Position numbers and translations under genes: made by a program
Source of the DNA: Dysidea avara
Lineage: Eukaryota
DNA: 64,000 bases
NCBI RefSeq assembly: GCF_963678975.1
Contig: NC_089278.1
Location: 6,672,531-6,736,530 of the forward strand
Direction of reading: 5' to 3'
Shown: in pieces, positions 11,670 through 15,881 of the stretch
Layout: each line of letters opens with the position of its first letter
How positions within the stretch are numbered: position 1 is the stretch's first letter
The notes under the pieces: generated by a model
What the model saw: the letters and a program-made list of their open reading frames with translations, nothing else
Told to the model about the DNA's origin: nothing
Databases searched by the model: none

Positions 11670-13640
11670 TTAAATGTTTGTGTCATCATGATTGTTTATG
11701 TCAAACTTCAGATCAGAAGTATGAAATATGGCAGGAGGTTTGTCACCATCTCCCTTGCTAATCCTTTTATCAGTTGAACCACCTAGTACAGAGTATATTA
11801 TTGTCTCACGCTCCTCTCCATTTACATGATAATTAAAATCATCCTTATCAATGATTTTCGGAATGTACCAGAATGGATTCTGCACACATTTTCATTTTAA
11901 ACTTAAAAAAAAACACGTTAACTTACTTTATGATTAGGGTCGTCAATTGATGTCTGAGCTGATGGTTTAGAGTCATCATCAGTTGGTGGATCACCACCAC
12001 CACCAGTGATTGGTATTGCTGGTTGTAATGTCTCTGGAAGGTCTGCATATAAAATTGGTTTTCACTTTCTATATATCTAATTGATCCAAATGATTTTCAG
12101 TGGTGAAGATTCGGAGGAGGGTTGATATTCCACTTTAAGAAACAAGGAAGCTTCTGTAATGAAACAATGAATGGTTTACACAAGTTGCTCTCCTATCACT
12201 ACCACTACTACTACTACTACTGCTAGTATAGTAATAAGAGTATGTATTGTCTGTTGTACCAGGCAACAGAACTTTATTAAAGGAAAAAAGGCAAAGCCAT
12301 TTTGATTTAGCTACTTTGCCTACAGGACCTTAGGGGTCCATAGTTTGACTCTGAAAAATAACAGTTAGTGACTATAGATAACCATCACACTACTGTAGTG
12401 CCAGGTTTCTTTGTTGGCTAGAAAACCCAAACATTAGTAATATTATTTTTTACGTAATATTCTTACTATCAAGAGGAACAGATGGATCATAATCCTTGAA
12501 AAACACTGGTCCACCTTGTATGTCAACTGTCAGAATCTGCTGGCTACCAATACAGGGAATTTGATTTCCCGGACCTGTACTTGTGAGTGTTGTCGTCAGA
12601 TAGACCTCATGAATCAAGGGAGACCTCAATTGAGCTTTTGCAAATTCTTCATTAATTTCTTTTTTCCACTGATCAAAATCATCATGTTCTGTTTTTGTCC
12701 ACTATATGTAAAATAACTAAAACATGTATGTACACATCCAACAATATAAACATCAGAAAGATGGAATATTTGAAATCAGTGCCTCTACAACTTCCACCTT
12801 GATTTCCTCAATAGAGTTAACATCAACATAGGAAAAATATAGAAATTTTATATTTGAGCATAGCTGTACTGATCATAGAAATAAAAAGCAAAGAAACAAG
12901 GGGGTTTATCTACGCCTGCAGCTATACTAGTAGACATTTAATTATTACTTCACCATGACTGGAGTAGGGATCAATAGCTAAATATAAGTGTAGATGACCT
13001 CCCATGTTTCCTTACTTTTTGTACCCAAATATAAAATTTTCAATTCCTTATACTTGATTGTTTACAATGACTGGTGAACCAATGCACACCACATTAAAGG
13101 AAAAAAAATGGTGTTCTCCAGACAACCATCCTTCCTGGAATACTGATCTGTTTTAAGGAAAACTGAGGCTGTTTTTTTTTGGGGGGGGGGGGGGGGGGGA
13201 GGGGGACCTCCATGATACGTACTATACAGTACTTCTGTACTGCATGATGATATGATTGATATACATATTTATATACAATTTAAAAACATATAGGGCATTC
13301 CCTTGGTGGTTTGTAGCTTTAAAAATGAGATCTGATAATTTTCAGCATATTCTGATTGGTACAAGCATAATAGAAGTACAACAGCTCATTTTACACAACC
13401 TGATCGTATGATGAACCTTGAAATGTCAGCACCACTGTACCTTGATGATTAAACACTTGCTCTAAAGCATGTCTCAATGGCTTACCAAGATCAAGCTTCA
13501 GTTTTTCTGCCACAGGGCCGGCACATCATCACCATCCTCTTCTTGTCAGGCTACACTCTTATTACTCACTGCCTGTTGACATGATAGTCTTATAGCAGGA
13601 ATTTCATGTCTCATACAAGCCTGATAACCAGACATCCTGA
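11670..13640 (-). CDS. Novel lineage-specific gene, copy 1 of a tandem pair, at least 4 exons.
   Basis: The exons are as follows. (1) About 13570-13640, MSGYQACMRHEIPAIRLSCQQA, followed by a gtgagt donor. (2) About 12475-12712, WTKTEHDDFDQWKKEINEEF...QILTVDIQGGPVFFKDYDPSVPLD. (3) About 11930-12050, PETLQPAIPITGGGGDPPTDD.... (4) 11670-11885, ...NPFWYIPKIIDKDDFNYHVNGEERETIIYSVLGGSTDKRISKGDGDKPPAIFHTSDLKF...*. The copy is collinear with copy 2 at about 60-75% amino-acid identity. Confidence 0.45.
13181..13205. repeat. G19-A-G5 homopolymer tract (G-quadruplex-capable), in an intron of the copy-1 gene.
   Basis: Direct read. Confidence 0.9.
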
Positions 13641-14063
13641 ACACTACTCTCCTCAACAGTTAGACAAAGAATGAACAAAACTACAGTGAAGGTTTTATAG
13701 TGAGCAAGGCCCAGCTATACTAATAAGGATAAACAATATTTATTATGATATCATTGGCTAGAAAGACGTCTCTTTAAATACCACAAACAAACAATGAAAA
13801 AACACGCCCAATTAAACACATGCACAACTTAGTTAAAGTCTATATTAGCCATTACATATACTATATAAATAACCGATCACAAAGTTACAAGCAGTGAAGT
13901 AGGCTAAACAGTGACCATCACTACTACCTGAGGGGAGGGAGGACCAACAATCAATGAGATCACATGCATGTAGTGGTTATAAACACATACGTACAATATA
14001 CACTAGCAAAATGTGTGAAAGTATTTTAAAACAACTAGTTCTTGTGTTGGACTTCCATCATCA

Positions 14064-15881
14064 CTAATTGTTGACGTCACCACCAATAGGATAAGTGATT
14101 ATATGAAACTTCAGATCAGAAGTAGCAAGTATGGCAGGAGGTTTGTTACCATCTCCCTTGCTAATCCTCTTATCGGGTGAGCCACCTAGTACAGGATATA
14201 TTATTGCCTCCTCCTCATCTCCATGTACATGATAATTAAAATCATCCTTGTCAATGATCTTTGGAATGTAGTAGAATGGATCTGATAGTGCATGTGGAAT
14301 GTTCTGCACAATTTTATTTTAACAAACTTAATTTTAAAACACATCAACTTACTCCATCATCAGGGTCATCAGTTGATGTCTGACCTGATGGTTTATCAGT
14401 TGGTGGATCATCACCACCACCAGTGATTGGTGTTGCTGGTTGTAATGATGTCTCTGGAAGGTCTGCAAAAAATTGGTTTTCACTTTCTATATATCTAATT
14501 GGCAGAAGTGTATTCAAATTGATCCAAATGATTTTCATTGGTGAAGATCCAGAGGGTTGATATTCCACTTTAAGAAATACGGAAGTGTCTGAAATGGAAT
14601 GATGAAAAGATTACACAAATTTTCTGCTGTAATAATGCTACCAGATTAGTAATAATTTTTGTTGATGAGCATGTATTGTAGTATCTACAGTTGTATCAGG
14701 AATGTTGACAATGGAACTTTATCAAGGGAGAGAAATTGTTTTGACCTACAGGACTTTAGAGGTATGCGCACACACAAACATGCGTGCATGCACACACACA
14801 CACACACACACACACACACACACACACACACACACACACACACACACACACACACACACACACACACACACACACACACACACACACACACACACGTAAC
14901 AACGTACAAACACACTACACACATACAGTGGCAACTATAAAATCACCTATAGTTTGAAAAATTAATTTTCTTAGAAACTTTGGGACCACTTGTAGACTTG
15001 ATCAATACACTAGTGTAGTGCCAGGTTTCTTTGGTGGCTGGAAAACCCAAATCTTAGTGATATTATTACATAATATTCTTACCATCAAGAGGAACAGCTG
15101 GATTATAATCCTTGAAAAACACTGGTCTACCTTGTGTGTCAATTGTTAGAACCTGCTGTCCACCACCAGTAACTGCACCTACTACATACGAGGTGGGTGG
15201 TAGTGTTGTCTTCAGAGAGACCACAGTAATTTTAGGAATCAAACAACATTTTCCAAATTCTTCTTTAAGTTTTCTTTTCTATTGAGTAGACTAAGACTTA
15301 CACACATCCAACAAATGATCAACGTACATAAGATGGAATGTTTGAAATCAGCTCCTCCACAACCTCTACTTTGATTTCCTCAACTGAGTCAGTTGTGTCT
15401 AGCTGTTATAACACATTAATGGTTACTTTAAAAAAACAGAAAACATACTGTACAATCAGTGAAATGGGATTTCATCAGTCTAGTTAATCTTGGTGGTTTA
15501 AAATGAGATTTGATATTATCAGCATATTCTGATACCTGTTGATTGGTACAAGCATAATAGAAGTACAACAGCTCATTTTACACAACCTGATCATATGATG
15601 AACCTTGAAATGTCAGCACCACTGTACCTTGATGATTAAACACTTGTTCTAAAGCATGTCTCAATGGCTTATCAAGATCAAGCTTCAGTTTTTTTTACCA
15701 CAGAGGGTATGTCACTATTCTCTTCTTGCCTGGCTACATGTTTCTCACTAGGTTTAGTAGATTTCTTGGCAGCTTCCTTGCTGACTGCCTGTTGTGATGG
15801 CCTACTATTGTTAACTCTTGATAGTCTTATAGCAGGAATTTGATGTTTCATAAAAGCCTGATAACCAGACATCCTGAACAC
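14064..15881 (-). CDS. Novel lineage-specific gene, copy 2 of a tandem pair, at least 4 exons.
   Basis: The exons are as follows. (1) About 15696-15881, MFRMSGYQAFMKHQIPAIRLS.... (2) About 15092-15282, KRKLKEEFGKCCLIPKITVVSLKTTLPPTSYVVGAVTGGGQQVLTIDTQGRPVFFKDYNPAVPLD, followed by a gtaaga donor. (3) About 14344-14570, TSVFLKVEYQPSGSSPMKIIWINLNTLLPIRYIESENQFFADLPETSLQPATPITGGGDDPPTDKPSGQTSTDDPDDG, followed by a gtaagt donor. (4) 14064-14311, NIPHALSDPFYYIPKIIDKDDFNYHVHGDEEEAIIYPVLGGSPDKRISKGDGNKPPAILATSDLKF...*. Intron phases are consistent between exons. Confidence 0.5.
14766..14896. repeat. (CA)n microsatellite with more than 50 units.
   Basis: Direct read. It produces the spurious HTHT and CVCV ORFs at 14659-14940. 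Confidence 0.98.

Follow-up and report, generated by a model that had tools for sequence, protein, structure and literature searches.

Tandem paralogs of a fast-evolving, domain-less protein family in the sponge Dysidea avara: a pseudogene beside a copy with one frameshift

The stretch analyzed here, referred to as the window in the following, comprises 64,000 nucleotides of the demosponge Dysidea avara (NCBI RefSeq assembly GCF_963678975.1, contig NC_089278.1, positions 6,672,531 to 6,736,530, forward strand) and harbors, on its minus strand, two adjacent copies of a gene whose product has no recognizable domain. With a probability of roughly 85%, we regard these as tandem paralogs of a fast-evolving, domain-less family in the course of ordinary birth-and-death evolution, of which copy 1 has become a pseudogene and copy 2 carries a single frameshift. 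The window is eukaryotic in character, with a GC content of about 0.38, (CA)n microsatellites and short GT-AG introns. An earlier interpretation made without database searches (the sequence-only reading) had already drawn attention to the duplication, and several of its claims are revisited below.

The duplicated unit and the ancestral gene

When positions 11000-16500 were compared with the whole window by blastn, four colinear direct-repeat blocks emerged (E-values of 1e-15 to 1e-136, identities of 72-87%; Table 1), which define a unit of 2,441 bp, slightly larger than the 2.3 kb given before, that is repeated head-to-tail at 11434-13861 and 13875-16113. The unit extends beyond the gene itself, by about 240 bp on the 5' side and about 200 bp on the 3' side; the narrower bounds proposed earlier correspond to the stop codon of copy 1 (11670) and to a position (15881) just upstream of the ATG of copy 2 (15872). 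A tblastn search found only these two copies in the window. At its left edge (11434), the duplication begins within the last 11 codons of a convergent gene on the plus strand, and a decayed relic of these codons, at 13875-13908, marks the junction between the units at 13861/13875. Since the edge of the unit lies inside the last codons of the neighbor and this fragment was carried along, the duplication proceeded at the DNA level. The locus is a tandem segmental duplication, a direct repeat that includes introns and flanks and has a definable junction.

The proteins encoded by the two copies are 69-74% identical, within the 60-75% estimated before, and both motif blocks quoted in the sequence-only reading are found verbatim in the open reading frames (ORFs). 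By segment, the copies share 84-97% of nucleotides in exons, 53-72% in introns and 76-80% in flanks, with lower values for two exons of our first gene model (67% in exon 3, 70% in exon 4). The view that conservation falls in the exons and not in the introns therefore holds weakly: exons do exceed introns, but the flanks are also well preserved, the start of intron 1 is almost identical in the two copies, and some of the similarity between exons stems from a gene-conversion tract described below. A G19 tract in an intron of copy 1 is present as had been reported, and the difference in length of the first exon is accounted for by a 21-nt and a 33-nt deletion, which leave E1 of copy 1 shorter than that of copy 2.

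Six coding exons (E1, E1b, E2, E3, E4 and E5) make up the ancestral gene, and not four, as had been proposed. This structure is set by orthologs in metagenome contigs together with two RefSeq models, and splice donors (GT), acceptors (AG) and phases are all kept in the three comparison loci, namely two sponge-associated metagenome contigs (L001, L002) and a second D. avara segment (L003). The introns are mostly 46-51 nt long, and the encoded protein has about 340-385 aa. E1, which holds the most conserved block of the family (KLKLDLDKPLRHALEQVFNHQGTVVLTFQG), is continuous in L002, in the proteins P0128 and P0143 and in the RefSeq protein P0148, with a conserved donor (GATCAG/GT), while E1b is an extra exon of 25-31 aa; L001, L002 and L003 all keep its acceptor (caatcaacag/GTATCA) and a GT donor. 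Our first six-exon models, which placed a small intron inside E1, used a short E4 and rescued both ORFs, were overturned by the orthologs and RefSeq models, which show a continuous E1, the extra E1b and a long E4 that starts about 125 nt further upstream. The dN/dS values (ω, the ratio of nonsynonymous to synonymous substitution rates) computed from the first models were accordingly replaced by values from codon alignments on the ancestral structure.

Decay, duplication and selection

Measured against this structure, copy 1 is an unprocessed pseudogene, with lesions in E1, E1b, E2 and E4 and with introns and flanks retained (Table 1). Its open exons are E3 and E5 only. In E1b, the acceptor was removed by a 10-nt deletion, two single nucleotides were inserted and the donor region was deleted. 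The donor lesion of E2 is common to copy 1 and to its counterpart in the second D. avara segment, copy 1', whose RefSeq model skips E2, whereas E4 is intact in copy 1'. All lesions of copy 1 recur identically in the corresponding locus of an ENA assembly (L004), and a protein matching copy 1 was absent among the database matches and clusters examined. Frameshifts or stops on full assembly, which by the terms of the sequence-only reading itself would refute it, are clearly present in copy 1, with five lesion sites, and marginally in copy 2, with one frameshift.

Unprocessed pseudogenes are known from tandem birth-and-death clusters, for instance from those of the globins. Copy 1 resembles these in that it keeps its introns and flanks, has nonsense, frameshift and splice lesions, appears to evolve faster and has undergone conversion with its neighbor. 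It differs from them in that the parent family here has no known function or fold and that the surviving neighbor is itself damaged.

Copy 2 is intact apart from one lesion in E1, where an A8 run shifts the frame by +1. It corresponds to the RefSeq protein XP_065912857.1 (257 aa, 'uncharacterized protein'), which matches part of E1b and all of E2-E5 exactly. Because of the frameshift, the coding sequence (CDS) of this model begins at an internal ATG in E1b and lacks the most conserved block, in E1; its first nine residues are not conserved in the family.

The most serious alternative is that copy 2 encodes the full protein of about 372 aa, and that the A8 run reflects an assembly error, a polymorphism (with a true A7), transcriptional slippage or +1 ribosomal frameshifting. 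The lesion is the sole one in copy 2 and falls in a homopolymer, and removal of one A restores an ORF colinear with the orthologs. It is also young, since copy 2', the copy of the same type in the second segment, has AAAAGAA here and stays in frame. On the other side, 8-nt runs are as a rule read reliably by HiFi, and the ENA assembly, whose locus is 99.94% identical to the window, contains the run as well. The start of the RefSeq CDS downstream of the run likewise fits a frameshifted genome sequence. As to the origin of the two assemblies, a HiFi/IPA assembly of D. avara has been described and a separate ASG assembly mentioned (PMC12909245); both may be long-read, though HiFi/IPA is the only one documented there. 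Programmed frameshifting or slippage is further opposed by the lack of conservation of the run, given that copy 2' has AAAAGAA and that copy 1', L002 and P0128 read through in one frame. On balance, we consider a full-length product of copy 2 unlikely.

The second D. avara segment shows that the decay is reciprocal. This segment (L003; ENA ERZ25068803, contig ctg11508l, 81044-101295) is inverted relative to the locus, at a distance of about 41 kb from it, and about 92% identical to positions ~8061-21099 of the window. It spans at least 13 kb and carries a second tandem pair, copies 1' and 2', plus neighboring sequence. In copy 1', which corresponds to the RefSeq protein XP_065910651.1 (333 aa), E1, E1b, E3, E4 and E5 are intact. 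Copy 2', in turn, is dead: its start codon and three splice sites are gone, and it contains a stop, an insertion and a frameshift. The window has thus kept the type-2 copy and the inverted segment the type-1 copy. Since 106 informative sites group the four copies by type and only 6 group them by segment, the tandem duplication preceded the segmental one. We further observed that the inverted segment contains a 4.3-kb insertion (10397-14714 of L003), absent from the window, in the intron of copy 1' downstream of E1b; it holds an ORF of 386 aa that runs on the opposite strand (12362-13522) and may be a mobile element.

One exon departs from this grouping by type. Over about 150 nt of E4 (~14549-14387 in copy 2), copy 1 of the window is 96-97% identical to copy 2, but 90-94% identical to copy 1', which indicates gene conversion homogenizing the two window copies. 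This tract explains the very low dS of E4, and the exon similarity between the window copies is due to it in part. Taken in order, the whole gene with its flanks (2,441 bp) was first duplicated in tandem in the D. avara lineage, after its split from the species represented by L002. A segment of at least 13 kb with both copies was then duplicated and inverted about 41 kb away, and reciprocal decay left copies 1 and 2' dead, copy 1' intact and copy 2 with one frameshift. The conversion in E4 has homogenized the window copies.

Between copies 1 and 2, ω (0.80-0.94) has confidence intervals that include 1, and the three codon positions carry about equal numbers of substitutions (39/38/32 and 54/46/46), so that this comparison does not bear out the purifying selection that had been deduced from it. 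Between species, ω of the family is 0.54-0.68, with confidence intervals below 1. The family has the same dS (0.42-0.46) as the syntenic gene for telomerase-associated protein 1 (TEP1; 0.44), but an ω of 0.62-0.75 as opposed to 0.047, and a protein identity of about 60% as opposed to 95%. Of the indels that separate copy 2 from copy 1', 7 in the CDS are in-frame and 1 shifts the frame, against 6 and 22 in non-coding sequence (Fisher p = 0.0013); at the non-coding rate, about 20 frameshifts would be expected in the CDS (P = 4e-8). Conserved splice sites, a preserved frame and ω below 1 mark the family as a genuine protein-coding gene under weak constraint. Polarized by the outgroup, 31 amino-acid changes fall to copy 1 and 10 to copy 2 (p = 0.0015), while the nonsynonymous to synonymous ratios (N:S) at the nucleotide level do not differ (45:15 and 29:12), both counts being subject to gene conversion, which confounds the polarization.

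One part of E3 stands out, a hypervariable patch of about 45 nt (~15207-15163 in copy 2; its counterpart in copy 1 lies within 12515-12639). The two paralog types are only 20-40% identical here, compared with about 78% in its flanks. The patch has equal length in both types with essentially random identity (6-12 of 30), and it varies in length among the orthologs. Diversifying selection and local sequence replacement are candidate causes.

A second alternative holds that both window copies are functional under purifying selection and that derived splicing avoids the lesions, by way of an intron of 74 or 103 nt within E1 and, for copy 1, of a downstream acceptor for E4 and an upstream donor for E2. 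Such phase-matched GT-AG junctions do give open frames of 268 and 263 aa, and all seven indels in the resulting exons are multiples of three, compared with 8 of 33 in non-coding sequence. The argument is circular, however, because the models were picked to keep the frame. E1 is moreover one continuous exon in the orthologs, in P0128 and P0143 and in the RefSeq protein P0148, and the acceptor region of the putative E1 intron is A-rich and has no pyrimidine tract; RefSeq leaves this intron unused for copy 2. Copy 1 has also lost the acceptor and donor of E1b and carries three times the number of derived amino-acid changes found in copy 2, and an ω of 0.8-0.9 between the copies, without an excess of third-position changes, speaks against purifying selection on both. 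We therefore judge it very improbable that both copies are functional.

Distribution, product and function

So far, homologs of the family have come only from D. avara and from small metagenome contigs apparently of related sponges. With a family query, an indexed protein search returned no match, and an exhaustive phmmer search over 1.84 billion representatives returned ten, among them several raw ORF calls of the same locus, fragments of 53-88% identity and one protein of 383 aa that aligned over its full length at about 30% identity. P0122 and P0130, also from this exhaustive search, were discarded as repeat or compositional artefacts. A search with a family profile gave 12 proteins, all of them members of the family and none with a Pfam domain. 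The clustered RefSeq members, XP_065912857.1, XP_065910651.1 and XP_065890721-4, are all from D. avara and have neither a name nor a described function. The last of these (375-386 aa) represent a paralog on another chromosome that is 28-35% identical and covers all conserved blocks. It brings the family loci of D. avara to five, the other four being the linked copies. Three small JGI/ENA contigs (P0146, P0147 and P0156) contain E1 fragments that are 56-71% identical to XP_065890721-4; as this paralog has orthologs in other sponge-derived metagenomes, the split into subfamilies would predate those species.

Orthologs of the window genes are carried by L001 and L002. In L002, a single copy with a fully open frame adjoins the same TEP1, and the sequence to either side of this copy is colinear with that of the window, which places the tandem duplication in the D. 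avara lineage after its split from the L002 species. For TEP1, the nucleotide identity between D. avara and the metagenome ortholog is 88.8%, suggesting a close relative. Judged by the homologs found, which come from D. avara and sponge-derived metagenome contigs only, we are dealing with a lineage-restricted orphan protein-coding family. Lineage-restricted, fast-evolving genes are common in sponge genomes. The earlier description as a lineage-restricted tandem family without a recognizable domain agrees with the negative Pfam, PDB and profile searches and the sponge-only homologs; copy 2 had already been annotated as XP_065912857.1.

That the repeat is instead a transposable element fragment, a non-coding RNA locus or an artefact of uncollapsed haplotypes can practically be dismissed: the missing domain, two low-confidence AlphaFold models and the high ω would suit it, but it is at odds with a syntenic single-copy ortholog beside TEP1 in another sponge with intact splice sites and ORF, with frame-preserving indels and a between-species ω below 1, with the absence of transposable element domains and terminal repeats from four linked copies in a syntenic context and one distant paralog, with a divergence between the copies of 13-28% in nucleotides (dS 0.2), far above that of haplotypes, and with the absence of Rfam matches above threshold and of tRNA genes in the region. 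A sub-threshold Rfam match to mir-297 corresponds to a CA microsatellite (14791-14895).

Searches for a known domain or fold were negative. The best score in a Pfam scan was 16.1 bits, below the gathering cut-off of 25.8; the matches to a TraG P-loop, Str_synth and Q_salvage were sub-threshold, occurred in one of 12 members each and were absent with the family profile. A sequence search of the PDB gave nothing significant. Its weak single-sequence match to RIB35, a microtubule inner protein of the sea-urchin axoneme (PDB 8snb; E = 0.46, residues 111-177), was treated as chance, with the family profile giving no match at E <= 10. A possible internal repeat, of the E3 core with the E5 core, was likewise rejected (hhalign probability 0.08%, E = 0.64). 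AlphaFold2 models had a mean predicted local distance difference test score of 46.5 for RefSeq copy 2 (13 sequences) and of 31.4 for the frameshift-corrected copy 2 (20 sequences), and since both were too poor, no fold search was made.

No transmembrane segment or signal peptide was found, the maximal Kyte-Doolittle mean over 19 residues being about 1.0, and the first 30 residues of the family proteins contain 2-7 Lys/Arg and no Asp/Glu. This basic leader without acidic residues is possibly an organelle-targeting presequence. With low confidence, we picture the remainder as a helix-strand motif that is conserved, a core of mainly beta structure whose loop is hypervariable, a disordered, acidic linker in which Pro, Gly, Asp and Thr abound, and a C-terminal module, again conserved, and the whole, equally tentatively, as a soluble intracellular, non-enzymatic binding protein.

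The hypervariable loop encoded by E3, an ω of 0.6-0.8, repeated duplication, reciprocal loss and gene conversion resemble the dynamics of immune-type multigene families. By this analogy, the family might comprise sponge-specific proteins that serve in recognition or binding inside the cell and evolve under diversifying pressure, such as that of microbe interaction or self/non-self discrimination, an idea to which we give little credence. Species-specific NLR repertoires have been described for D. avara (PMC12909245). With these expansions, the present family shares its distribution in one lineage, recent lineage-specific duplication and fast evolution; unlike the NLRs, it has no NACHT, LRR or other recognizable domain and is small, with five loci.

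Several observations weigh against our overall interpretation of a pseudogene next to a paralog with a single lesion. E3 and E5 of copy 1 are in frame, and alternative GT-AG junctions allow an open frame of 263 aa. A homopolymer error or a polymorphism might underlie the A8 frameshift, and as the window and L004 show no mismatches across the unit, the two assemblies may not be independent. On their terminal branches, all four copies have near-neutral N:S ratios (6:2, 14:4, 19:6 and 35:14). The hosts of L001 and L002 appear to be related sponges, expression of the family is inferred from RefSeq models, including several isoforms of the distant paralog, and the outline of the product is drawn from composition only.

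Genomic context and significance

Table 1. Features of the tandem gene pair, with positions in the window.
Feature	Position	Strand	Description	Evidence or remark
Tandem unit 1	11434-13861	-	holds copy 1 (type-1 paralog, pseudogene) and 5'/3' flanks	blastn self-comparison, identity by segment
Tandem unit 2	13875-16113	-	holds copy 2 (type-2 paralog, XP_065912857.1) and flanks	blastn self-comparison, segment identity, RefSeq match
Repeat block	11434-12186/13875-14621		72.5% identity	blastn
Repeat block	12387-12549/15007-15165		87% identity	blastn
Repeat block	12732-12817/15302-15389		80% identity	blastn
Repeat block	13319-13861/15497-16113		76.6% identity	blastn
Convergent neighbor, terminal coding exon	11393-11467	+	ends in VSSLDEELSQARQLIRQLQAEKQT and stop	alignment
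Neighbor relic	13875-13908	+	decayed last ~11 codons and stop	alignment of 11400-11600 with 13841-14040
Copy 1 E1 relic	13400-13635	-	in-frame TGA at codon 30; second half out of frame	copy 1' has CGA (Arg)
Copy 1 E1b relic	13294-13356	-	approximate coordinates	three-way alignment with copy 2 and copy 1'
G19 homopolymer	13181-13199	+	copy 1 intron between E1b and E2
Copy 1 E2 relic	12753-12863	-	ends in NSIEEIKVEVVEALISNIPSF and stop	ancestral GT donor lost, then stop
Copy 1 E3	12467-12701	-	WTKTEHDD...QQILTVDIQGGPVFFKDYDPSVPLD	ORF intact
Copy 1 E4 relic	11927-12153	-	20-nt deletion creates TAG (IIWIN, stop); 2-nt insertion downstream
Copy 1 E5	11670-11879	-	NPFWYIPKIIDKDDFNYHV...DDTNI	stop TAA at 11672-11670; ORF intact
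Copy 2 E1	15587-15872	-	ATG 15872-15870; interrupted by +1 frameshift	continuous in orthologs and copy 1'
A8 homopolymer	15689-15696	-	T8 on plus strand; +1 frameshift site in copy 2 E1
Copy 2 E1b	15449-15535	-	VSEYADNIKSHFKPPRLTRLMKSHFTDCT	RefSeq CDS starts at internal ATG 15475
Copy 2 E2	15328-15402	-	LDTTDSVEEIKVEVVEELISNIPSY	RefSeq model, conserved splice sites
Copy 2 E3	15083-15278	-	KRKLKEEF...QQVLTIDTQGRPVFFKDYNPAVPLD	RefSeq model
(CA)52 microsatellite	14791-14895	.	copy 2 E3-E4 intron	source of spurious sub-threshold mir-297 match
Copy 2 E4, long form	14353-14588	-	DTSVFLKVEYQ...IIWINLNTLLPIRY...DDPDDG	RefSeq model P0131, orthologs
Copy 2 E5	14064-14303	-	NIPHALSDPFYYIPKIIDKDDFNYHV...DVNN	stop TAG 14066-14064

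Further along the window lies TEP1 (31944-39941, plus strand; TROVE, NACHT and WD40 domains), which is essentially intronless and consists of a 2,368-aa ORF after a contiguous 296-aa ORF. Over about 790 aa, it shares 94.7-95.4% identity with its syntenic counterpart in L002 (ω 0.047, dS 0.44), and the best identity in an indexed protein search was at most 59%. The distance from the upstream flank of the gene pair to TEP1 (~18520-31930) is about 13.4 kb in D. avara and about 3.6 kb in L002, and the extra DNA includes ORFs at 23892-24296, 25153-25494 and 26706-27194. Apart from the microsatellite in Table 1, (CA)n repeats are found at 11242-11318 and 46030-46109. Long ORFs at 42040-42834, 51460-52575, 52651-53484 and 63140-63595 resemble, by eye, exons of conserved genes, namely of a mismatch-repair ATPase of the PMS1/MLH type, a myotubularin-related protein, a methyltransferase and an acyl-CoA synthetase; such contents are in keeping with an ordinary metazoan region of high gene density.

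For annotation, the analysis reduces one of the two 'genes' to a pseudogene and finds the RefSeq start of the other at a non-conserved internal ATG. It also defines a previously undescribed family without a known domain, one window copy of which was already on record as an uncharacterized protein. As an instance of gene-family dynamics, the locus is small and clean, and specialists will hardly find it surprising. If the proteins did act in recognition under diversifying pressure, the retention of one copy of each type, in reciprocal positions, would suggest that types 1 and 2 are non-redundant partners.

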